DNA of 64,000 nt, from positions 12,399-76,398 of the forward strand of contig JAFXTS010000011.1 of NCBI GenBank assembly GCA_017535665.1, read 5' to 3'. Every line of letters begins with the position of its first letter. Position 1 is the first letter of the stretch. Made by a program: the position numbers and the translations under genes. The stretch is from Bacteroidales bacterium (lineage in GTDB: Bacteria; Bacteroidota; Bacteroidia; Bacteroidales; WCHB1-69). The notes under the pieces are model-generated. The model was not told where the DNA came from and made no database searches. It saw only the letters and a list, made by a program, of their open reading frames with translations. Below, one piece after another: positions 31,521-51,731 of the stretch.

Positions 31521-31579
31521 CAAAATTACAATTTTTCAGGCAAATTTTATCCCTTCACTGCCAAAATGTGAACCCTCAC
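31521..31579 (-). promoter_or_regulatory. promoter A: -7 box TAATTTTG plus two motif-1 direct repeats (GTGAGGGTTCAC / GTGAAGGGATA) phased at 21 bp
   Basis: Minus sense reads GTGAGGGTTCACattttggcaGTGAAGGGATAaaatttgcctgaaaaattgTAATTTTG. The repeats are at 31548-58 and 31570-79, the box is at 31521-28 and the ATG is at 31480. Confidence 0.6.
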
Positions 31580-31790
31580 AGCAAAAATGTGACAAACTGC
31601 TATAATGAAGCTGTTGCGAGGGTTTATAATAAATTGGTAATCAAATTTTTATAAAATGCAAAATCAATAGGGCTTTTGCGGGAATAAATGAATTTGTGTG
31701 AAGGGATAGATGAAAATCAGGAAGGCGCTTTCTCCACTTTTCACCTTTCAATTTTCAGTTTTCAATTCTCAGTTTTCAGTTTTCCACATC
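31541..31790. repeat. conserved intergenic module, copy A (homologous to 48935-49177 and partly to 44885-45060)
   Basis: It aligns with copy B over about 250 nt at roughly four-fifths identity by eye. The layout is a minus-facing repeat pair, the AT-rich core ttataataaattg.taatcaaatttttataaaa, a plus-facing repeat pair, then a heptamer array. Confidence 0.8.
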
Positions 31791-39163: not shown

Positions 39164-39195
39164 TACCCCCTCACAGCGACAAAGTGAACCCTCAC
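39164..39195 (-). promoter_or_regulatory. motif-1 direct-repeat pair (21-bp phase) upstream of barrel copy 2, overlapping the stop codon of the sigma-fusion gene
   Basis: Minus sense reads GTGAGGGTTCACtttgtcgctGTGAGGGGGTAA. ccctcac occurs at 39068+100 (39168-74) and at 39189-95, an offset of 21 nt. The ATG is at 39119. Confidence 0.55.
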
Positions 39196-41051
39196 TTTGT
39201 CACCACATCGGCTCCACCTGTAATTTTAACATTGCACCCACAGGTTCCGTCCAAGAGGTAAACCGTTCCCGTTTTCGGGACATATACGTCGGTCTTGCCG
39301 ACACCTTTCTGCGTGATGTAAGCGGTAGATGCTGTCAAACCACTTGCTTTAATGTTACCCACCCCTTCATTCTCCACAATCAGGTTGTCTGCCCTCCCTC
39401 GCACGGAAATTGCGCCAGTATCCCTGTTTTTGATTGTCAAAATAGTAACATCCAATACTTTAAGCGAAATATTCCCCACACTCAAATTCTGTACATTCAC
39501 TTTCGATGTTTTGCCTTTCACCATCTTTTCGGTCGCCTTTATGCTGCCCGTACCTTTGTTTTTGATAGTCAAAGTGTCATAACATACATACCGCACATCA
39601 ATGCTCCCTATGTCGTTATTTCCCAAAACCAAATTCTTCTTTGCCACCAGACCATCACATTTGAAGCTGCCAATGCCATGGTTGGTGACGGTGAATGAAT
39701 CCTCATTTATTTCGCGGGCGGTCACGTTGCCCGGACCTTTCAGTGTCACTTCTTTCAGATGTGGCGTGTATATCGTGACGGAAATGGGCGAGCCGGTTTT
39801 GGGAGCCCCCTGCTTGAGAGAGACGGTAAGGTTTCTGTCCAAAACTTCAAAGGTCTTAGGGTCTATCACGTCTACAAATTCCGTGCGCACATAGTCCATC
39901 ACGTTGGAATCTGCCGCTATGTAAGCAGTGGATTCATCTCCGCGTGCTATAATGACGTCAATAGGGGAGGAAACAGTTAGCGAGGTGAAGGGGTCCAACG
40001 TCCGTTTTTGGGAAACCCTCCCGCTGTTGTCCAAAATTTGGAAATTGTTGAAATCGATTGCATCAAGGCTGGATTGGGAAGGTATGTTTTCTTCGCTGGG
40101 GCAGGGTGTTTCGGACAACGGGGGTGTTTTTTTTGCGGGATGGTCGGGGATATTTCCCGTCTCTACTGTGGCATGCGCCGTCTCTGCCATGGTTGTATCA
40201 ACCGCCGTTTCCACCGTATCCACCACCACGCCAATCGAATCATGCATTTCATTTGTTGACAACGGGTTATGTTGTTCTGTCGGTGCTGCGGGTTGCAGGA
40301 CGATGAGGGTGCCCGAAACCGCAACGGCCGCAATTCCCGCGGTGGCGGTGGCGATGGCGGGGACTTTCGCGGCGGAAATGGCCATCCACGCGCTCGGTTT
40401 CGGGACGGCGGCCCAGTTGACCCCTGCCAACGGGGAGGTTTGGGCGGGTGCAAAAGCCAAGTGCTGGAGCTTGGCACGGCAAAGACGGTCGATGGCGTGC
40501 GCCTTGTGAGGGATAAAGGGCAAAAGTATCATAAGAAGGGATTTTTTTCGTTTGTGGGTGTTGGTTAGCATTGCCTGGAGTTGTGTCCGCGCTTCCGACA
40601 GATAGCGTTTGGAACTCCGCTCTCCAATTTTCAGTGTTTCTGCAATTTGTGAATGTTTCTGTTTTTCAAATACATATAGGTTGAAAACGGCCCGTTGCTT
40701 GTCGGGAAGGGCACAGATGGCTTCCAAAATTTCCTGTTCGGTGAAGTCTGCCGCCGGCAATGGCTCTTCCTCTGTTTCCAGACCGTCGTCACAAATATTC
40801 ATGTCGTCAACCGACTGGAAATGAGGTTGTTTGCGCAGATAATCCAGTGTATTGTTGAGGTTGATGCGCATAAGCCACGCCTCGAAACTGCCGAAGTTGT
40901 GGTACTGCTCCGACTTTTCGATGGCCTTGAGGAAGGCCTCGTGCGCGAGGTCCTCCGCCACGGAGCGGTTGCCCACATAGCGGTAGCACACACCGATCAT
41001 CTTGCCGATGTTCTTCTGGTAGGTTCGTGTCCAAAACTGCTGTGCCTGCAT
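39192..41051 (-). CDS. single-polypeptide ECF sigma factor / transmembrane linker / extracytoplasmic GIN (DUF2807-like) beta-repeat domain
   Basis: Sigma region 2 (DLAHEAFLKAIEKSEQYH..GSFEAWLMRINLNNTLDYLRK) and region 4 (LPDKQRAVFNLYVFEKQKHSQIAETLKIGERSSKRYLSEARTQL). A TM follows (VPAIATATAGIAAVAVSGTLIVL), then a Pro/Thr linker. The C-terminal 300 aa or so have G.G.I / V.G.G repeat strands typical of DUF2807. Confidence 0.7.
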   Translation of the reverse strand: MQAQQFWTRTYQKNIGKMIGVCYRYVGNRSVAEDLAHEAFLKAIEKSEQYHNFGSFEAWLMRINLNNTLDYLRKQPHFQSVDDMNICDDGLETEEEPLPAADFTEQEILEAICALPDKQRAVFNLYVFEKQKHSQIAETLKIGERSSKRYLSEARTQLQAMLTNTHKRKKSLLMILLPFIPHKAHAIDRLCRAKLQHLAFAPAQTSPLAGVNWAAVPKPSAWMAISAAKVPAIATATAGIAAVAVSGTLIVLQPAAPTEQHNPLSTNEMHDSIGVVVDTVETAVDTTMAETAHATVETGNIPDHPAKKTPPLSETPCPSEENIPSQSSLDAIDFNNFQILDNSGRVSQKRTLDPFTSLTVSSPIDVIIARGDESTAYIAADSNVMDYVRTEFVDVIDPKTFEVLDRNLTVSLKQGAPKTGSPISVTIYTPHLKEVTLKGPGNVTAREINEDSFTVTNHGIGSFKCDGLVAKKNLVLGNNDIGSIDVRYVCYDTLTIKNKGTGSIKATEKMVKGKTSKVNVQNLSVGNISLKVLDVTILTIKNRDTGAISVRGRADNLIVENEGVGNIKASGLTASTAYITQKGVGKTDVYVPKTGTVYLLDGTCGCNVKITGGADVVTK

Positions 41052-41128: not shown

Positions 41129-42172
41129 TCAGTTGAGGATGATGTACTCCCCTTTAACCTCCCCTTTGTCAATCTTTTCCCTGAGGTTCCGCGCGTCCGT
41201 TTCCGGATCGGCGGTGGCGAGGTTCGACCGCGGGAAGAAATAAAACTCACATTGCTCACTATACACATACTTGGCCTTTTTTACCGTTTCCTCCCACGTT
41301 TCCGCACAAAAAACCTTGTGCCGGTTCCGATGAATCTTTTTCAGATTGTCGGGGGTGAGGATGAAAAGCGTATTCCCTATCTGATAAACGTTATGTATGG
41401 CATACTCGTCGTATCTTTTTTTGCCGGGAGCAGATGCGTTGCAGAGATCCGAGGTCTGCATGTAGTCGCGAACGTTCAGGTTTCCCTTCCGCACCTCTTT
41501 ATACCATGTTTTGGAGAGTGGAAAGCCCCGTTTGTAGGCGTTGTGTCGAAAAACGAGGCCCAAGTGCTCCACAGCGATGCCCGCCGTATAGACATTCACG
41601 AGAGGATATTTCTTATATAGCTGCTTGATTCTCTGTAAGTTGTTGTAATCCACGCTGTCCAATATCCGTTCAAGTTCTTTGTCGTCTGCGGAGCACAAGC
41701 TATTTTTCCGCACGGCTTGGTCGGAGGCGAGGATGTCCTCTATTTCATCGTGCAAATCAGGGATGATGGTCTTTTTGCAGTTGAGGTACAGCGTCTTCGC
41801 CGTTTGGTACAGGTCGGCATCCTTGATTGTGTCGTCGATAAAATCGGCGGGTTCTTCGCCCGAGCGGATGAGCGCATAGATGCAGATGAACGCGCGGTCG
41901 GTGTTTCGCAGGAATTCCGTATTGACCCGAAACGCAAAAATGGCATCCTTGCGGAACGGAAGGTGGCAGGTGAACGCCTCGTCATAGCAGTCGGAGGCCC
42001 GCTGGAAGTTGCTGTCGCAGATGGCCAACTCGGCCTGGTTGACCCAGTAGTTGTACTGTTTCACACTTGCGGGTTTGAACTGGACGCTTGCGTCATACTG
42101 CTTGCCAATGGTCTGGCATAACCCGTTAAAAAGCGTGCTCAAGATGCACAGAATAAGGAGGATCTTTTTCAT
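41129..42172 (-). CDS. hypothetical secreted protein, family Y copy 2
   Basis: The start is moved to the internal MKKILLILCILSTLFNGLCQ, which is a signal peptide. The 69 upstream codons of the listed ORF lie in AT-rich non-coding-looking DNA. Confidence 0.65.
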   Translation of the reverse strand: MKKILLILCILSTLFNGLCQTIGKQYDASVQFKPASVKQYNYWVNQAELAICDSNFQRASDCYDEAFTCHLPFRKDAIFAFRVNTEFLRNTDRAFICIYALIRSGEEPADFIDDTIKDADLYQTAKTLYLNCKKTIIPDLHDEIEDILASDQAVRKNSLCSADDKELERILDSVDYNNLQRIKQLYKKYPLVNVYTAGIAVEHLGLVFRHNAYKRGFPLSKTWYKEVRKGNLNVRDYMQTSDLCNASAPGKKRYDEYAIHNVYQIGNTLFILTPDNLKKIHRNRHKVFCAETWEETVKKAKYVYSEQCEFYFFPRSNLATADPETDARNLREKIDKGEVKGEYIILN

Positions 42173-42403
42173 ATCGTTAATAAATTGTCGTGTCTCTATT
42201 CGAGAGAAAGACGTGTTTTTTTTCAGAAAGTGCCAAATAAAAAGAGAACTGTGGATAATGGAGTGTTTTTTTAACGATAAAAGCCGCTGATTTATTGGAC
42301 TTTTGATTAAAATTTCTAAGTGAACAAACAAAATGTTTTGCCATGAAACATTATTTATACATATTGTCCCGCTCGGCAAAAAAATAGTACTCTATTCCCC
42401 CCC

Positions 42404-43546
42404 TCACTTGAAACAATTATGGTTCCCCCAGTTGAAACGGTAGCCGTGTTCCTCACCGAAATCCGTTTTCGCCCGTTCCACCCGTAGCGGTATAATCCAG
42501 TATTGCTTCCGCAATGCATCAGTCTCATCTTCAGCAAGAAAGAGGTCTGCAAAAATATCTTGATCACCGCCACCTATGCGAAAAAAACAATTGGCATACT
42601 GACCGCAATCACATTCTAATTCGCCAGCAGAATTAGGCGTGTGAGATTCATCAATTATGTAGGCAAATTCTCGTGGATGGAGATTCCCTTTGGCTATTTC
42701 ATCATTGATAAATGCAAAATTTCGCAATGGGCATTTGTGAATTCTTAAATAGGTAATGGGGAAATGTTGTGACAGACACTCGTCGTCCAGTTCGAAACAA
42801 ACATATTCTGATTCCACTATCCTCATCCAAATGGTATCTGTGCCAAATACATACGGTTTCGGGAGAGTGTCGAGCGTAGCACATAAACTATCGGCACTTA
42901 TTTGCACCAAATAATTGAAATTCAAATCTTTGTTCTTTAATTCCTTGTAAAGGAGAGAGTCATCAATGCCCACTTGTTTAGTGCCAGGATACCCTGATTC
43001 TGTAATTTTTTGCGCCAACTCTTTGTCCCATTCGACGCATCTCTGACAATATTCAGCAAAGGAAGTTTTTCGACGTATTTTTTCCGCAGTTAAAGAAAAC
43101 TGGTACAACCACGCCAGATATTCCTGATTGATGGTGGTGAGATATTGTTGCCTGATGGTTTGTCCCTCAGTACTTTGGAAATATTCAAGAAATTCTTGTG
43201 CGACGGTCTGTTCCTGCCAGACAGGAATAAAGTTCAGGTTTGCGGGGTGCAGCCCGTAGCCGACGGCCTTCTTCAGATATTTCATATAATCACGATGGTA
43301 GTAGTGCGCCAGCTGTGCCGCATTCACCAAATCGTGTACGTAGTTGAACTCAAAATTGTTGAAGGCTTGGTCGTAATATTGGAAACCCTGTTCCACATTT
43401 ATGTTGCTGTCGAACAGAACGCACTCGGCTTTGTAAATCAACTCGTGGTAATGCCAGTAGTTGGTGTCCTGCTGTGCCTTGGCGGACCGGCACGCGCCAA
43501 CGACAGCAACGACGACAAAGGAAATGGATAGGAGGATGTGTTCCAT
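42404..43546 (-). CDS. hypothetical secreted protein, family X copy 2
   Basis: Signal peptide and strong similarity to 35404..36528. Confidence 0.7.
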   Translation of the reverse strand: MEHILLSISFVVVAVVGACRSAKAQQDTNYWHYHELIYKAECVLFDSNINVEQGFQYYDQAFNNFEFNYVHDLVNAAQLAHYYHRDYMKYLKKAVGYGLHPANLNFIPVWQEQTVAQEFLEYFQSTEGQTIRQQYLTTINQEYLAWLYQFSLTAEKIRRKTSFAEYCQRCVEWDKELAQKITESGYPGTKQVGIDDSLLYKELKNKDLNFNYLVQISADSLCATLDTLPKPYVFGTDTIWMRIVESEYVCFELDDECLSQHFPITYLRIHKCPLRNFAFINDEIAKGNLHPREFAYIIDESHTPNSAGELECDCGQYANCFFRIGGGDQDIFADLFLAEDETDALRKQYWIIPLRVERAKTDFGEEHGYRFNWGNHNCFK

Positions 43547-43684: not shown

Positions 43685-44311
43685 CTACTGGCGGTTTCCC
43701 TCCGTGCGGTACGTGAACTTGTCGAAACGCTCAAAGCCGTAGGCTTGCAGCTGCTCCACGCTCCACGCCCGGTCGTCGTCGGTGTTGTAGTCGGGGATGA
43801 GCGGCACGCGCACCACCACCTGCTGGGTGGGGAAGTGGCCCGCAAGGTGTTCCAGATTCCGCAGGAGCCGTGTGATTGGCTGGCCGGTGTACTGCTGGTA
43901 AATCTCGGGATGCAGGTCTTTGATGTCCACGATGAAGGCATTCACATGGGGCAGCACCGCCTGCAGGTTCTCCTCCGGCACGTTGAGGGAGGTTTCAAGG
44001 GTGAGCTGCCAGTCGGCGCCGCACAACTCGCGGAAACGGATGAGGTAGTCGGGGCGCAGCAGCGGCTCGCCACCGCCGAAACAAACCCCGCCACCGGTGG
44101 CCAGAAAGTACAGCTGGTCGATGCGTACCTCCTCGTAAAGCTGCTCCGGCGTCAGACAGCGCAACCGCTCCGCCGAACCCAGACAGGAGGGGTTCAGACA
44201 GTAGCGGCAGTGCAGCGGACAGCCGTGGAAGGCCGCCAAAGTGGTCACCCCGTCGCCATCAATGCCGATGCGATGCCGTATAATACCGATGAATGGAGCC
44301 GCTTGCAACAT
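43685..44311 (-). CDS. small radical-SAM enzyme of the glycyl-radical-activase-like type (copy 1)
   Basis: GVTTLAAFHGCPLHCRYCLNP carries a CxxxCxxC cluster motif. GGGVCFGGGEPLL is a SAM-binding-like block. At 208 aa it has no SPASM extension. Confidence 0.8.
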   Translation of the reverse strand: MLQAAPFIGIIRHRIGIDGDGVTTLAAFHGCPLHCRYCLNPSCLGSAERLRCLTPEQLYEEVRIDQLYFLATGGGVCFGGGEPLLRPDYLIRFRELCGADWQLTLETSLNVPEENLQAVLPHVNAFIVDIKDLHPEIYQQYTGQPITRLLRNLEHLAGHFPTQQVVVRVPLIPDYNTDDDRAWSVEQLQAYGFERFDKFTYRTEGNRQ

Positions 44312-44314
44312 GTT

Positions 44315-44794
44315 CTATAACGAATCTTGGGGTGGGTCGGTTATCGGGATGGTATCTGTGAGAATTTCATCAGATGGATCTTCCACAAAGCCTTCACACA
44401 TTATTACTTCCCCGGGAACAATCATCTCCCACGTTGCTTCCTCTTCTTTGTTGGTTTGGGCACTGTCAATGGGAGGAGCGGGTATGGTATCCGCCACCTT
44501 TTCCGTTTGGGGTTGTGCAACGACCTCCGGGATTTTGTCTTGCGCTTTCGGCTGGCAGGCATTCAGGGCTATGCTGCCCAACGCGATGCCGGCAATGGTC
44601 ACCGCCTTCCCCATCAGACTCCGCTTCTGCAGCTCCCGTTCCAGGTACTGCACTTTCGATTCGCAGTACGGACAGGTGCCGTGGCAGTCGCCCTCATGGG
44701 TGCATTCGCGTTCCTCCAGCGGAATGTTGTTTTGCGCGGCAATATCCCGACGGATCTCTTTCAAAATTTTGCAGGTTGCTTTCCCGTGTTTCAT
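44315..44794 (-). CDS. Cys-rich N-terminal domain / TM (lipobox-like) / acidic Pro-rich tail protein, translationally coupled to the radical-SAM gene
   Basis: MKHGKATCKILKEIRRDIAAQNNIPLEERECTHEGDCHGTCPYCESKVQYLE has 5 Cys, including CX5CX3CX2C. It is followed by MGKAVTIAGIALGSIALNAC. The stop is 3 nt before the rSAM ATG. Alternative starts exist at 44851 and 44890. Confidence 0.6.
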   Translation of the reverse strand: MKHGKATCKILKEIRRDIAAQNNIPLEERECTHEGDCHGTCPYCESKVQYLERELQKRSLMGKAVTIAGIALGSIALNACQPKAQDKIPEVVAQPQTEKVADTIPAPPIDSAQTNKEEEATWEMIVPGEVIMCEGFVEDPSDEILTDTIPITDPPQDSL

Positions 44795-44866
44795 GGCTGA
44801 AAAAATATTGGTTGCAAAGGTACGATTATTTTCTTGATGAATATACTTCATTGCGATTTTCAGCAA

Positions 44867-44926
44867 CGAAATTACAATCGTTTCAAGCAAAATTTATCCC
44901 TTCACACCCAAAATGTGAACCCTCAC
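44867..44926 (-). promoter_or_regulatory. promoter C: -7-like box TAATTTCG plus motif-1 direct-repeat pair (21-bp phase) for the Cys-rich/rSAM operon
   Basis: Minus sense reads GTGAGGGTTCACattttgggtGTGAAGGGATAaattttgcttgaaacgattgTAATTTCG. It is collinear with promoters A and B. Confidence 0.6.
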
Positions 44927-45022
44927 CACGAAAATGTGACGGATGGTTCAAATGAAAATGCTGTATTGGTTTATAATATTTTGATAATCAAATTTTTATA
45001 AAAAATATAATTGAGAAGGCTA

Positions 45023-45099
45023 ATGAAGGAATAAATGAAGATGAGTGAAGGGATAAACCCATTTTGGGAAGATTGTTTGGAAAGAATTGAGTATTTTTG
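45023..45099 (+). promoter_or_regulatory. plus-facing motif-1-like repeat pair (ATGAAGGAAT / GTGAAGGGAT, 22-nt phase) and -7 box TATTTTTG for the LytTR regulator gene
   Basis: The repeats are at 45023-32 and 45045-54, the box is at 45092-99 and the ATG is at 45124. Confidence 0.5.
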
Positions 45100-45123
45100 C
45101 TGCCGTATATACATCCTGCCTTT

Positions 45124-46185
45124 ATGAAACATTCGAAGAAAATTGCCATCGTTTTGCTCAATGTCCTGTTCAGTGCCGTAGTGCTTTGGTTTTTTGCCCG
45201 CAACCTTATTTTGCACCCATTCTCGGGCGGCTTTGTCAAGGAAGCCATTTCGGGCATTCTGTTGTTAGGCTCATTGTATTTCAATTACTTTGTGCTTTAT
45301 CCCAAGCTTTATCCCAAATATCCGCAAGTGTATTGGGCGGTTGTGGTGCTCAGTGCTATCGTGGTGGGCGTTGTGGAGACGGCTCTTGCCTACCGTTTTA
45401 TTGTATCGCGCCATGCCAATGCTATTAAACTGGTGGGATATTTCGAGTTTTTCGCCACCCATCAGTTTGAGGTCATTGGACGGAATCTCGCTTTGAATTT
45501 CTTCCCGTTTTTGTTCAGGGATCGTAAACATTACCAACAGTCGTTGGAGGACGAGACCAAGATCGTGTACGAGCGGGTCCGCATGCTGGATGTCGCCGAC
45601 AAGGACAGCAACATCCAGCTGTTGACCATGGATGACATTTTCTACTGTGAGCAGCAACGCAATTTCACCACGATCTACACCGTGCAAAATGAAAAATACA
45701 CGAGGTTGGGTTCCATGAAGCATCTGGAGCAGCTGTTTGGCGAGGAGGATTTCATCCGCATCACAACCACCTTGCTGGTGCCTTTCCAGCATATCCAGTC
45801 GTGCAAAGATAACAGGGTGATGATGAAGCAGATGCCGTGGGAGGAGGTGCCCACCACCTTCCCATTGGAGGCCCGCACGCAGGCGGAAGTGGCTGAAAGA
45901 ATTTCCGAAATCCTTTCGCAGAAGGAGGTTGTTTTAGACGAAAATAAAATCCCGGAGACTCCGACTTCCACCACTGCCAGGCGTAAACCGGCATCTGCCG
46001 CTGAGGGAAAGGTCAGGGAGGTGCTATCTTACATCGAAGCCCATCCGAACTGTAATACGGCGGACATCATGGCCGGAACGGACTTTTCGTTGAGCACCGT
46101 GGAGCGCTGCCTCTCCGAGCTCAAAAAGCAGGGACTCATCGAGCACACCGGCAGCAAGAGAAGCGGCGGGTACAGCAGGGTGTAA
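45124..46185 (+). CDS. membrane-anchored LytTR-domain regulator with an extra C-terminal winged-helix domain
   Basis: Three to four N-terminal TM helices. A LytTR-like block reads IQLLTMDDIFYCEQQRNFTTIYTVQNEKYTRLGSMKHLEQLFGEEDFIRI. The C-terminal MarR/wHTH-like block reads VLSYIEAHPNCNTADIMAGTDFSLSTVERCLSELKKQGLIEH. There is no receiver domain. Confidence 0.65.
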   Translation: MKHSKKIAIVLLNVLFSAVVLWFFARNLILHPFSGGFVKEAISGILLLGSLYFNYFVLYPKLYPKYPQVYWAVVVLSAIVVGVVETALAYRFIVSRHANAIKLVGYFEFFATHQFEVIGRNLALNFFPFLFRDRKHYQQSLEDETKIVYERVRMLDVADKDSNIQLLTMDDIFYCEQQRNFTTIYTVQNEKYTRLGSMKHLEQLFGEEDFIRITTTLLVPFQHIQSCKDNRVMMKQMPWEEVPTTFPLEARTQAEVAERISEILSQKEVVLDENKIPETPTSTTARRKPASAAEGKVREVLSYIEAHPNCNTADIMAGTDFSLSTVERCLSELKKQGLIEHTGSKRSGGYSRV

Positions 46186-46190
46186 ATAAC

Positions 46191-47216
46191 TTAATTATCA
46201 AGAAAATAGTCGCATACATTCATTACGAACATTCCATTGTTCAGTCTATGTGCAGGAATGGTGTCATTGGTTAAAATCACTTTCTTGAAAGAGTCGTCAA
46301 TTAGCTTTAAAGAGCGTTCCTCTTGCTGTTGTTTTTCGGCATCAGGAAGGGAAAAGGCACTTTGAACATAGAGTCGGTCGTTGTCCTTATTGCAGACAAA
46401 ATCCACCTCAAATGTGTTTCGTACGGTTTTTCCGTCCTTGTCTTTTGTGTATTGTTCAATTACCCCGACATCCACACTGTATCCATAGTGAATCAAGTGG
46501 TTGAATATGATGTTCTCCATTACATGAGTGGGTTCTACCTGTCTGAAATCAAGGGCTGAATTCCTCAGTCCAATGTCAGAAAAATAGTACTTGCAGGGAG
46601 TGTCGATGTATTTCTTTCCTTTAATGTCGTAGCGGATAGTTTTTTTTAAGAGAAAAGAATCTTCAAAGTAATCAATGTATTGTTTGATAGTCCATGAATT
46701 TATAGAAACATTTTTCTCGCTTTTGAAAGTGTTGGACAGTTTGGTGGGATTCGTCAAAGATCCGATATTGGATGCCAGTATGTTGAAAAGGTCAGACAGT
46801 TCCGCGTCATTCTTCACCTTGTTTCTTCCTATGATGTCTGTCAAATAAGTCTCTTTAACTAATGCGTGCAACATTTCCCGCTTGATGGAAGCATTGGTTT
46901 CGCTCACAACCAAAGGAATGCCGCCATAATACATATATTCTTTCCAAACGGAGGTTATTTCTCCTCCTTTTTCCAAATATATCTCCTTAAAAGTAAGTGG
47001 GTTGACATTGACTTGCACTCCTCGTCCCCTAAATTCAGTCACGATGTCGGAGGATAAAAATTTCGCATTGCTGCCTGTGACATACACGTCGAGATTGTCA
47101 ATGTGCAGAAAACCGTTCAGTACATCCACAAACCTGTCAAGCATTTGCACCTCATCAATGAAAACGTAATGCATCTCCTTGTCGTTTGCAGAGGCTTCTT
47201 TAATGAATCGATACAT
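46191..47216 (-). pseudogene. N-terminally truncated AAA ATPase with DUF4143 domain
   Basis: Walker B (YVFIDEVQ) and the DUF4143-type C-terminus are present. No Walker A P-loop is present upstream. The region is AT-rich. Confidence 0.6.
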
Positions 47217-47310
47217 TTTTTCCGCTTGGAAAATATTTTTGTGTATATACACAATTTTAGTTTGCAAAAATACAAAAAAAAAGAGAGAGAAGATGTCTTT
47301 GGAGTTTTTT

Positions 47311-48914: not shown

Positions 48915-48973
48915 CAAAATTACCATTTGCAGAGCAATATTTAATCCCTCATAGCAGGAATGTGAACCCTCAC
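48915..48973 (-). promoter_or_regulatory. promoter B: -7 box TAATTTTG plus motif-1 direct-repeat pair (21-bp phase)
   Basis: Minus sense reads GTGAGGGTTCACattcctgctATGAGGGATTAaatattgctctgcaaatggTAATTTTG. The repeats are at 48942-52 and 48964-73, and the box is at 48915-22. Confidence 0.6.
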
Positions 48974-49177
48974 AGCAAAAATGTGACCACCTGCTTCAAT
49001 GAAGCAGTTATGTGGATTTGTAATAAATTGTGAATCAAATTTTTATAAAAACAAAATGGATAGGGCTTGTGAGGGAATAAATGAAATTATGTGAAGGGAT
49101 AGATGTAAATCAGGAAGGTGCTTTCTTCCGTTTTCACCTCTCACCTTTCAGTTTTCCATTTTCCATTTTCCATTTCC
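48935..49177. repeat. conserved intergenic module, copy B
   Basis: Collinear with 31541-31790. It includes the plus-facing pair GTGAGGGAAT (49069) and GTGAAGGGAT (49091), and a TTTTCCA heptamer array at 49131-49177. Confidence 0.8.
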
Positions 49178-49793: not shown

Positions 49794-50456
49794 CTACTTT
49801 TTAATTTTCTGATTATGAATAATGTACGAGTCTTTTTGGGCGATGTCAGTTCGGTATTCGAAACGGTCGAAGTTTTGGAATCCGTATGCCATTAATTGCT
49901 CCACGCTCCATGCCCTATCGTCGTCGGTGTTGTAGTTGGGGATAAGCGGCACCCGTATCATCACCTGCTGGGTAGGGAAGTTTTGGGACAGATATTTCAG
50001 ATTCTCCAACAGCAACTCAATAGGTCTTTCAGTATAGTTTTGATAAATATTGGGATGTAAATCCTTGATGTCCACGATGAAATAGTCGGCAACGGGCAGC
50101 ACGGATTTCAACTGTTCTTGAGGAACGTAGAGGGAAGTTTCTAAGGTAAGTTGCCAGTCGGGACCGCACAACTCGCGGAAGCGGACGATAAAATCGGACC
50201 GTAGCAGGGGCTCCCCACCGCCGAAGCACACCCCGCCATGGGTGGCCAAAAAGTAGAGCTGGTCGATGCGCACCTCCTCATAAAGCTGCTCAGGAGTGAG
50301 CGTGCGACAGACTTCCACCAGACCGTGACAGCTGGGGTTGAGGCAGTACTTGCACTGCAGGGGACAACCGTGGAAAGCCGCCAGCGTAGTCACCCCCTCG
50401 CCGTCGATGCCGATGCGGTGCCGCATTATGCCGATGAAGGGAGCCGGTTTTACCAT
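49794..50456 (-). CDS. small radical-SAM enzyme (copy 2, about 75 percent identical by eye to 43685..44311)
   Basis: GVTTLAAFHGCPLQCKYCLNP and GGVCFGGGEPLL. It is collinear with copy 1. Confidence 0.8.
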   Translation of the reverse strand: MVKPAPFIGIMRHRIGIDGEGVTTLAAFHGCPLQCKYCLNPSCHGLVEVCRTLTPEQLYEEVRIDQLYFLATHGGVCFGGGEPLLRSDFIVRFRELCGPDWQLTLETSLYVPQEQLKSVLPVADYFIVDIKDLHPNIYQNYTERPIELLLENLKYLSQNFPTQQVMIRVPLIPNYNTDDDRAWSVEQLMAYGFQNFDRFEYRTDIAQKDSYIIHNQKIKK

Positions 50457-50462
50457 GGGTTA

Positions 50463-51731
50463 TTATTTCTCAGATTCTGAGCCGTAAATCAATTCAACGA
50501 GATTATAGAGCAACAGATAGTCAATCATGTTGACTTCCCCCGTGTCGGCCGTGCGCCAAGGACAAAACAACGACAAGCAATGCCAGGGCGGTGCATTTCT
50601 AACGGTTTGTCCTGCTGTGGTTTGGGTGAGTTTGCCGTCGGTAGGGGCACTGTTGAGGTATGCATCGTACTGCTCGCGCGGCAGCAGCTCTTTCCCCTCT
50701 TTCCCATAGATAACCAAATTGATGAGGGGTAGGTGAGGAAAGATAAGTTCTTGTTGTAAATCAGGACGTTTGCGTACGATCTTATCGCAACTTTTCACCA
50801 GCCAGGCGTAACAGTCTTTGCCGCTCCCGGCGTCGTTCATCACCGCCGACATCGACAAGATGCCGTACCACCGGAAGTTGCCGGTTTTCGAGATGAACAT
50901 ATTGTCTTGCACCAATTTCCAGGTGCTCCGTCCCGCATTTTCTTTCTTCGTCCCTGCCGGTGTCGCCCCACTCAAAAGGTCACCTATCGTCAAATGGGCG
51001 TATTGTAACCAAATAAGATCCATTCTTTGTTGTATCTCATTGTGGGTTACATGGTTAATGATTGACCAATTCTCTTTTTCTCCCTCTTTATTTTGCATGA
51101 ATGCCACCATTCTTTGGCTTATCTCTGCCACTTTTTGGCATAGTTCAGCATCATCCACCAACTTTTGTACCAAGGCGAAACCGATATAACTGCCCCATGC
51201 CTGGTCTTGTGAAGGGGCGTTTCGTTTGCTGTCGGTTTTCCCGCACTGGTACTCGTAGTCGCTGGTGATCCATTGCACCCCGAAGCGGCTGGTGTCTGCC
51301 CGCCAGATGTCATCGCGGAGGTAGAAGCCGTTGGGGTGTGCGAAGGTGTCGCCGCCCCAGCATTTCTCTGCCTCTAAATCCAGTCGGTCATATACCTGCA
51401 AGGCGCATCGAAGTTCCTTCAGGGTGGCATCGGTGGACTTCCCTTCTTGTTGCAAACGGGCATACTCCGTGGCCAGCAGCGCCACATAGTGTCCCTGCCA
51501 CCAAATCCCGTCGCACCAGTACCCCGTCAAACCGTTGCGAGTTTGATATCTGCGTTCCATCGGCTGCGAGGTGCCCCGCTCCATCCCATTGCCCGTATAG
51601 TACAGAAATTCAGTGCGTAAGCGCTCTCTCAGCAGGTTGTATTTTTCTTCGTTGGAAAGGGTAGATTGTGCCAAAATCTGGCATAAACTACCCGAAAAAA
51701 TCGCTATCAAGAAGAGAATTTTTTTCAGCAT
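50463..51731 (-). CDS. hypothetical secreted protein (422 aa)
   Basis: Signal peptide MLKKILFLIAIFSGSLCQILAQ. Its stop is 6 nt before the rSAM start. No family recognised. Confidence 0.6.
   Translation of the reverse strand: MLKKILFLIAIFSGSLCQILAQSTLSNEEKYNLLRERLRTEFLYYTGNGMERGTSQPMERRYQTRNGLTGYWCDGIWWQGHYVALLATEYARLQQEGKSTDATLKELRCALQVYDRLDLEAEKCWGGDTFAHPNGFYLRDDIWRADTSRFGVQWITSDYEYQCGKTDSKRNAPSQDQAWGSYIGFALVQKLVDDAELCQKVAEISQRMVAFMQNKEGEKENWSIINHVTHNEIQQRMDLIWLQYAHLTIGDLLSGATPAGTKKENAGRSTWKLVQDNMFISKTGNFRWYGILSMSAVMNDAGSGKDCYAWLVKSCDKIVRKRPDLQQELIFPHLPLINLVIYGKEGKELLPREQYDAYLNSAPTDGKLTQTTAGQTVRNAPPWHCLSLFCPWRTADTGEVNMIDYLLLYNLVELIYGSESEK

Follow-up and report, generated by a model that had tools for sequence, protein, structure and literature searches.

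In the 64,000-nucleotide stretch of Bacteroidales DNA analyzed here (hereafter the window), a short open reading frame (ORF) on the minus strand (44315..44794; 159 residues from its ATG) is followed directly by rSAM1 (43685..44311, minus strand), a gene for a minimal, PflA-like radical S-adenosylmethionine (SAM) protein of 208 residues. The small protein consists of an N-terminal domain with five cysteines (the N-domain), a signal-peptide-like stretch and an acidic, proline-rich tail. Judged from sequence comparisons, the two genes are one copy of a conserved two-gene module, a widespread pairing in gut and rumen Bacteroidales that probably represents a new kind of radical-SAM protein partnership. 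We consider it likely that the two proteins form a functional partnership, while the further proposal that the enzyme acts on, or through, the five-cysteine domain as a tag is, on present sequence evidence, evenly poised.

The stop codon of the small ORF (TAG) is separated by AAC from the ATG of rSAM1, a gap of 3 nt that leaves both genes in the same frame. ORFs and sequence agree in this respect with an initial annotation, made by a reader of the sequence alone, which had described a cysteine-rich ORF with a radical-SAM ORF 3 nt downstream. The five-cysteine pattern, the hydrophobic stretch ending in LNAC, the in-frame Met61 and the acidic, proline-rich tail that it listed are all present in the 159-residue protein; the first cysteine spacing, given as 21 residues, is 22, a miscount by one. 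As to its interpretation, the functional pairing and the translation of the cysteine-rich region have stood, whereas LytTR control as a general trait of the pair, the separate lipoprotein starting at Met61 and the bacteriocin or quorum-peptide locus have not. A longer version of the small ORF, starting at a TTG and extending up to 44890, was rejected because homologs gave it no support. Metatranscriptome contigs from sheep and bovine gut match positions 44427-44661 and most of the radical-SAM gene at low depth; these RNA contigs stop short of spanning the junction between the two genes and so contain no joint transcript.

Genomic linkage of the two genes

The linkage was assessed in species-representative genomes, in which 524 N-domain relatives were found, nearly all of them in metagenome-assembled genomes (MAGs) of rumen and gut Bacteroidales and often several per genome. 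In total, 78 loci were kept, and a radical-SAM homolog was counted if it was located within 6 kb. Such a homolog (46-91% identical) was present in 35 of the 78 loci, as compared to about 1% expected by chance, according to our rough estimate for a gene with one or two copies in a genome of ~3 Mb. Likewise, when the neighboring genes were clustered over 84 loci, the radical-SAM gene was the only widely shared neighbor, with 37 loci versus 13 for the next.

The order of the genes is variable. Among 36 pairs, the gene for the cysteine-rich protein precedes the radical-SAM gene in 11 and follows it in 13, while 11 pairs are convergent and a single one is divergent. Where the cysteine-rich protein comes first, most gaps are at most 28 nt, or the genes overlap. 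One radical-SAM gene is followed by tandem N-domain paralogs in two loci, five in L069 and four in L072. Apparent fusions of the two proteins in L040 and L043 were discarded, since they represent overlapping ORFs in alternative frames.

The reverse comparison gave the same picture. Four out of four radical-SAM homologs with ~60% identity, selected only for their long contigs, directly adjoin an N-domain gene, as do all three of the matches in collections of plasmids and phages, one of which is the S. copri plasmid described below. The pair was also identified in MAG contigs labeled as Oscillospiraceae and Lachnospiraceae, with neighbors of Firmicutes type, and in two unverified "Bacteriophage sp." contigs from feces. 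On the 93-kb plasmid of Segatella copri HDE06, a strain of a human-gut species (NZ_CP137558.1; locus L101, 13820-16308; proteins WP_218413588.1, WP_218413589.1 and WP_218413590.1), two N-domain genes annotated as "energy transducer TonB" precede a gene annotated as "radical SAM protein," and the module adjoins genes for a relaxase, MobC and a transposase. The plasmid setting suggests that the module is horizontally mobile. The idea of a pair had been made to hinge on synteny in other genomes, which is now documented in dozens of them, in three gene orders and across phyla.

The window contains a second radical-SAM gene, rSAM2 (49794..50456, minus strand), which encodes a protein of 220 residues that is 75% identical to rSAM1. 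It starts 6 nt after the gene for a secreted protein of 422 residues with no match in Pfam (the region as a whole covers 49794-51731 on the minus strand). In the related loci L053 and L056, a gene for an N-domain protein of 168 residues sits exactly between the genes for the 422-residue protein and rSAM2, and it would thus either have been lost from the genome studied here or gained by L053 and L056. The comparison of these loci points to a cassette that is gained, lost and duplicated.

A separate observation concerns a cysteine-containing protein of 101 residues (MNIKITAIRKADYRDL...), which recurs near N-domain genes in 13 loci (L019:5508-5813 and 12 others; L001:2431-2736). Its recurrence may reflect only the relatedness of those genomes.

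The five-cysteine domain

The N-domain covers residues 1-58 (44621..44794, minus strand), as delineated from alignments and AlphaFold2 models, and its cysteines are arranged as C8-x22-C31-x5-C37-x3-C41-x2-C44. The last four form a cluster (CTHEGDCHGTCPYC; 44663..44704, minus strand), recognized in motif scans, within which the triad C37-x3-C41-x2-C44 has the spacing CX3CX2C, the same as in the cluster motif of radical-SAM enzymes. Given this triad, an iron-sulfur (Fe-S) site is possible, and a zinc site is equally possible.

A homology search with the small protein recovered at least 153 relatives, in which the first ~80 residues are 50-75% identical and the remainder differs; many of these are ~275 residues long and carry a C-terminal TonB_C domain. 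A library search with residues 1-80 yielded 2622 clusters (formed at 50% identity), among which 1651 have E <= 1e-10. Such a recurrence is far beyond chance. Among the 150 clusters listed out of the 2622, the match starts at most ~30 residues from the annotated N-terminus in all but P0257, a protein of 566 residues with ten "repeats" of the domain that resembles repetitive DNA translated in the wrong frame and was left out of account. The proteins of the family range in length from ~90 to 450 residues.

The conservation is concentrated in the N-domain. In 114 diverse members, G4, C8, L11, A19, N22, I24, C31, G35, C37, G39, T40, C41, P42, C44 and E45 are invariant, and the mean pairwise identity is 64% over the first 58 residues versus 21% over the exported part. 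Changes between the window sequence and nine homologs over the first 60 codons amount to 104, 69 and 220 at the first, second and third codon position, respectively. The excess at the third position indicates that the cysteine-rich region is translated; together with the 64% identity at the protein level, this settles a doubt about translation on which the earlier idea of the pair had been made to depend.

The N-domain was not matched by any model in Pfam, NCBIfam or PADLOC, and a sequence profile search of the PDB gave no meaningful match. A family of radical-SAM-associated lipoproteins in NCBIfam had been envisaged as a place to find the partner; no family matched the small protein, and only the long relatives were recognized, by models for the C-terminal part of TonB. 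The AlphaFold2 model of the N-domain, based on the 114-sequence alignment, has a predicted local distance difference test score (pLDDT) of 81.7 and consists of a helix (residues 4-21), a cysteine loop (22-41) and the start of a single long helix (42-78) that continues into the hydrophobic stretch. When this model was compared with the PDB using Foldseek, nothing similar was identified (best E 4.4). A function as anti-sigma factor was also considered and rejected, since no conserved sigma factor was found beside the family members.

The probable signal peptide and the exported part

The N-domain is followed by a signal-peptide-like segment (residues 59-80; 44555..44620, minus strand) with a basic n-region (R58, K63), a hydrophobic h-region of 16 residues (A64-A79) and the lipobox-like motif LNAC80. 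The family as a whole has an h-region of ~14-16 residues with Lys or Arg before it. Out of 308 members fetched, ~240 have a lipobox of the type ...[GA]C at the end of the h-region, while ~60 lack this cysteine and have AxA followed by Gln instead (PAVA↓QTPE, VALA↓QQPD). Gln at position +1 is the signature of signal peptidase I substrates in the Bacteroidetes, known as the Q-rule (PMC5837995). That either of two cleavage motifs can occupy this position argues for a cleavable signal peptide.

The protein in the window has the features of a lipoprotein, namely a basic n-region (KR...GK), a short h-region (16 residues) and a lipobox cysteine at +1 (LNAC80) that is kept in at least 90% of alignment A1. 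The Asn at -2 of the lipobox is atypical, and a folded n-region extension of 58 residues falls outside the definition of the lipoprotein family. From the sequence features, the five-cysteine domain would be a folded, cytoplasmic extension of the signal-peptide n-region. The small protein had been read as either a signal-anchored protein with a cytoplasmic cysteine domain or a separate lipoprotein starting at Met61. We retain the cytoplasmic domain of the first reading and, from the length of the h-region and the cleavage motifs, refine its anchor to a cleavable signal peptide; the second reading is set aside, since position 61 is Leu in most homologs. A Tat signal was likewise dismissed: some members contain KRR, and the twin arginine is not conserved.

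The exported tail of the window protein (residues 81-159; 44318..44554, minus strand) is acidic and rich in proline, contains no domain, is not conserved and has an AlphaFold2 pLDDT below 50; the model of the full-length protein, based on 25 sequences, has a pLDDT of 49. The exported parts of other members include TonB_C domains (30 of 114) and CarboxypepD_reg-like domains (13 of 114), with nothing recognizable in the rest. The window protein is thus a short member of the family, with a disordered tail as its only cargo. The public names of these proteins, "hypothetical protein," "TonB family protein" and "energy transducer TonB," describe at most the cargo. The window protein lacks the hallmarks of a TonB energy transducer, with no TonB_C domain, no His in the hydrophobic stretch and no exbBD among the clustered neighbors.

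One relative, P0003, agrees with the window protein at every position from 3 to 70, yet its tail is unrelated and is that of the P0008 group. Such a sequence suggests that N-domains and cargo parts are exchanged as modules.

The radical-SAM enzyme

The protein encoded by rSAM1 contains the radical-SAM cluster motif C31-P-L-H-C35-R-Y-C38 (44198..44221, minus strand), which is invariant in 45 family members, and matches only Radical_SAM and Fer4_12 in Pfam. Its best model is TIGR02494 (E 7e-36; 124 bits versus a cut-off of 174), which is matched in two stretches that skip the ferredoxin-like insert of that family. It is also similar to TIGR02493, the PflA model (88 bits, cut-off 232), to the NrdG2 model (E 3e-10; 40 bits, cut-off 131) and to the PflA structure 3c8f (E 1e-13). 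None of the curated cut-offs in NCBIfam is reached.

The invariant C31, C35 and C38 and a conserved GGGxxFGGGEP motif are characteristic of activases of glycyl-radical enzymes (GREs). There is no SPASM domain, for which 208 residues would leave no room, and the matches to PqqE and MftC are weak and confined to the N-terminal part. The matches in Pfam, NCBIfam and the PDB hence bear out the description in the initial annotation of a protein with a CxxxCxxC motif that is of the GRE-activase type and has no SPASM domain. The family has a signature of its own (PFIG..RHR...DG.GVTTL..F.GCPL.C.YC.N) and comprises at least 7921 clusters at 90% identity with E <= 1e-10. The best 120 relatives listed are mostly 204-236 residues long and are named only "radical SAM protein" or "pyruvate formate lyase activating enzyme."

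That the window encodes no GRE, as had also been noted from the letters alone, was confirmed by the Pfam identities of its ORFs and by a motif scan, in which RVxG[FWY] was not found in any real ORF of the 64 kb. The ORFs of at least 800 residues encode TonB-dependent receptors, type IX secretion system (T9SS) cargo, a tetratricopeptide repeat (TPR) protein, a protein with a Fib_succ_major domain and ClpB. Nor was a GRE encoded beside any of the ~45 copies of the radical-SAM gene examined. In PADLOC, neither the radical-SAM protein nor the small protein matches a model for a defense system.

A possible mechanism and its alternatives

We propose that the small protein is synthesized in the form of a pre-protein. 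Its ~58 N-terminal residues would adopt a cytoplasmic fold of two helices joined by a cysteine loop, organized around a metal site with either zinc or an Fe-S cluster. The domain would be located at the membrane surface, directly before a Sec-type signal peptide. Signal peptidase II is predicted to cut at Cys80, and signal peptidase I at AxA↓Q in some of the relatives, and the cleavage would free the variable exported part, which in the window protein would be only a disordered, acidic, lipopeptide-like tail. The cytoplasmic radical-SAM enzyme would dock on the cysteine-rich domain, which could be either its protein substrate or a handle that brings the pre-protein to the enzyme. We infer that the domain is the docking site because it is the only conserved part of the partner and the only part that can be reached from the cytoplasm.

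As for the type of modification, the chemistry may start with abstraction of hydrogen by the 5'-deoxyadenosyl radical, as in the activases of GREs, and with the domain as their tag, a group of secreted proteins would come to rely on a step that is sensitive to oxygen and requires SAM and Fe-S. One enzyme that serves several paralogs with unrelated cargo is a pattern that fits a tag. Our best guess as to the site is that the domain both recruits the enzyme and is itself modified. In its complete form, the hypothesis is that the five-cysteine domain is a new protein tag, that is, a metal-binding, cytoplasmic extension of a Sec signal peptide that is modified by, or given a radical by, a dedicated activase-like radical-SAM enzyme, such that anoxic radical chemistry would govern the export of a whole group of periplasmic proteins and lipoproteins, or their cleavage or fate; alternatively, the modified signal-peptide remnant may stay anchored in the membrane and have a function of its own. 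We consider this complete form less likely than not.

There are several findings that weigh against the tag hypothesis. The enzyme lacks the RRE and the auxiliary-cluster domain that are usual in peptide-modifying radical-SAM enzymes, the glycyl-radical motif RVxG[FWY] is absent from the N-domain, and the AlphaFold2 model of the N-domain shows no metal geometry. Cleavage of a signal peptide behind a folded extension of 60 residues is unusual and is here a prediction. Furthermore, about half of the N-domain genes have no radical-SAM gene within 6 kb, so that any action would often have to occur in trans, and rSAM2 in the window has no adjacent N-domain gene.

We also considered the possibility that the cysteine-rich domain is only a recognition handle and that the enzyme modifies the variable exported part, for example by epimerization or by a cross-link, before export through Sec, the product being a modified lipopeptide or lipoprotein. 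This is nearest to the substrate and maturase idea in the initial annotation, and it would agree with a conserved N-terminus that is combined with hypervariable C-terminal parts, with the tandem paralogs beside one enzyme and with the disordered cargo of only 55-110 residues in the short members coupled to a radical-SAM gene. However, the cargo has no conserved residue or motif, some of it consists of folded TonB_C or CarboxypepD_reg domains, the enzyme has neither an RRE nor a SPASM domain, and known leaders are not invariant, five-cysteine domains of metal-binding type. We regard a leader function as unlikely.

Another hypothesis is that the cysteine-rich domain binds an Fe-S cluster and either anchors the radical-SAM enzyme to the membrane or provides it in trans with an auxiliary or electron-transfer cluster, with the true substrate elsewhere, be it a lipid, a small molecule or another protein. 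The five invariant cysteines with their CX3CX2C triad are consistent with such an adaptor, as is the predicted helix that puts the domain at the membrane surface, and the enzyme has no auxiliary clusters of its own, given that it skips the ferredoxin-like insert of TIGR02494. However, PflA and NrdG function without auxiliary clusters, and no similarity to a ferredoxin fold was identified in the Foldseek comparison with the PDB. An adaptor is moreover less likely than a tag because one copy would suffice, and there are instead several paralogs per genome, fused to many different exported proteins. Altogether, we consider this explanation unlikely.

The neighborhood of the two genes could also be coincidental or regulatory, in which case the radical-SAM protein would be an ordinary activase for a GRE encoded elsewhere (pyruvate formate-lyase, NrdD or another), and the genes for TonB-like proteins and lipoproteins would share anaerobic regulation or mobile DNA with it. 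This explanation draws on the similarity of the enzyme to PflA and other GRE activases, including the DGxG loop and the GGE motif, on the mobilization genes beside the module in S. copri and on the many N-domain genes without a nearby radical-SAM gene. It is difficult to reconcile with adjacency in three gene orders, across phyla and in seven out of seven independent samples, or with scores that reach none of the equivalog cut-offs. As a rule, the gene for a GRE activase adjoins that for its GRE, and yet the window holds two radical-SAM paralogs and no GRE, and none is encoded beside the other copies examined. Coincidence is therefore, in our view, rather improbable.

Regulation and neighboring genes

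The weakest of the alternatives stems from sequences that precede the small ORF. About 105 nt upstream of its ATG there are two tandem copies, with a period of 21 bp, of a direct repeat of 20-21 bp that we refer to as motif-1 (TCACATTTTNGNNGTGANGG; 44899..44939, minus strand). They are located in an intergenic region that is shared with a divergent gene for a membrane regulator with LytTR and winged-helix domains according to Pfam (45097..46185, plus strand), which is a candidate for binding motif-1. A 21-bp period fits binding sites of LytTR type. The window contains six sites, compared to 0.23 expected, and the other copies are at 31552-31592 (twice), 39168-39187 and 48967-48986; all are on the minus strand and precede genes of that strand. 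The four units that they precede are a gene for T9SS cargo with an fn3 domain, a TonB-dependent receptor gene, the small ORF with rSAM1, and a SprB-like T9SS cargo gene. From their positions, the units look like a small regulon of the divergent regulator.

Only the closest relatives share motif-1 and the LytTR gene, and in them motif-1 adjoins the LytTR gene and a SprB-like gene and is not upstream of the pair. LytTR control may be real in this genome, as judged from the sequence, and is not a property of the module. A pair for the maturation of a peptide signal or bacteriocin under LytTR control, to which the repeats and the adjacent regulator would point, is highly improbable, since the neighborhood contains no GG-leader peptide, processing ABC transporter of C39 type or histidine kinase, the enzyme has no SPASM or RRE domain, the linkage to the regulator is not conserved and the family consists of secreted proteins of up to 450 residues.

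Several metatranscriptome contigs (runs X25 and X26) match only the double repeat of motif-1 (44892-44934), with unlike flanks. It follows that related organisms have the repeat at further loci and that it is represented in RNA libraries, although carry-over of DNA is possible. Closer to the small ORF, ~20 nt upstream of its ATG, we read the sequence TAccTTTG (44815..44822, minus strand). The consensus of the -7 promoter element in the Bacteroidetes is TAnnTTTG, and the octamer fits this box and is a candidate -7 element.

Two genes for secreted proteins (41129-42379, ~347-416 residues, and 42404-43546, 380 residues; both minus strand) follow directly downstream of rSAM1, with no terminator-like site in between. 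They belong to no Pfam family and are present only in contigs that are nearly identical to the window. On the other side, the LytTR gene and a convergent gene for an AAA_14/DUF4143 ATPase (46191-47267, minus strand) meet directly at their 3' ends, and the short length of the ATPase (341-358 residues, versus 430 in the counterpart in L004) together with the abutting ends suggests a rearrangement or truncation. Further away, in a protein of 619 residues (39192-41051, minus strand), regions 2 and 4 of an extracytoplasmic function (ECF) sigma-70 factor at the N-terminus are followed by a hydrophobic stretch, with a DUF2807 (GIN) domain at the C-terminus; the protein is apparently a fusion of a sigma factor with an adhesin-like part that spans the membrane.

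Comparison with known systems

Our findings tie a large activase-like clade, with thousands of sequences from gut and rumen Bacteroidales, to an undescribed five-cysteine domain in front of a signal peptide. In the literature, no description of the pair of a radical-SAM protein and an N-domain protein was found; a preprint on TonB in Porphyromonas gingivalis and a paper on mining Bacteroidales for ribosomally synthesized and post-translationally modified peptides (RiPPs) are unrelated. To our knowledge, activation of GREs is the only role known for radical-SAM enzymes of PflA type. If the enzyme acts on the domain, the substrate range of the activase clade would widen, with the first protein substrate other than a GRE for an enzyme of PflA type, and a common, vaguely named radical-SAM gene would be given a role. 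It would also be the first link between radical-SAM enzymes and signal peptides, and it would connect radical chemistry to protein secretion in dominant gut anaerobes. The cultured strain S. copri HDE06, with its plasmid-borne module, provides an experimental handle.

The closest sequence matches of the enzyme are PflA and other GRE activases (TIGR02493, TIGR02494), with which it shares a minimal radical-SAM fold of ~200-250 residues, an N-terminal CX3CX2C motif, a DGxG loop that precedes it and a SAM motif of the form GGGxxxxGGE; the activases, too, act on a loop of a folded protein. Compared to PflA, it is ~40 residues shorter at the C-terminus, has DGDGVT in place of DGxGxR and carries its own family signature. 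The neighbors of the copies examined are cysteine-rich proteins with the domain before a signal peptide, and never a GRE. The enzyme is thus related to the GRE activases and differs from them in its scores below the curated cut-offs, in the lack of an adjacent GRE and in the lack of a glycyl-radical motif in its partner. The NrdG-NrdD system of the class III ribonucleotide reductases also has a small activase, and in the NrdD region that it targets, conserved glycines occur together with a Cys4 metal site. In contrast, the N-domain has no RxxGY-type motif and is short (58 residues), helical and predicted to be tethered to the membrane, and the match of the enzyme to the NrdG model is weak.

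With the NHLP/Nif11-leader RiPPs and the maturases of SCIFF peptides and ranthipeptides, the pair shares a conserved N-terminal part, hypervariable C-terminal parts, tandem paralogs and one adjacent radical-SAM gene. It differs from these systems in having no SPASM or twitch domain, no RRE, no GG cleavage site and no C39 transporter. Moreover, the "cores" would here be Sec-exported proteins of 50-400 residues, and the conserved part is a folded, five-cysteine domain in front of a signal peptide. As for the TonB family (PF03544, TonB_C), in about one quarter of the N-domain members, a proline-rich linker leads to one or two TonB_C domains. Unlike in TonB, the hydrophobic segment lacks SxxxH and is followed by a signal-peptidase site, exbB and exbD are not conserved neighbors, and the window protein has no TonB_C domain at all. 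The annotation of N-domain proteins as "energy transducer TonB" should accordingly be corrected, since they have no TonB anchor.

The extended signal peptides, such as the ESPR of autotransporters and the KxYKxGKxW signal domain of Gram-positive glycoproteins, likewise have a conserved N-terminal extension before a normal signal peptide, which marks a subset of the secreted proteins. Those extensions are not cysteine-rich domains of metal-binding type and have no known link to radical-SAM enzymes, and there is a real chance that the module described here represents a categorically new system, in which radical-SAM chemistry is carried out on extended signal peptides.

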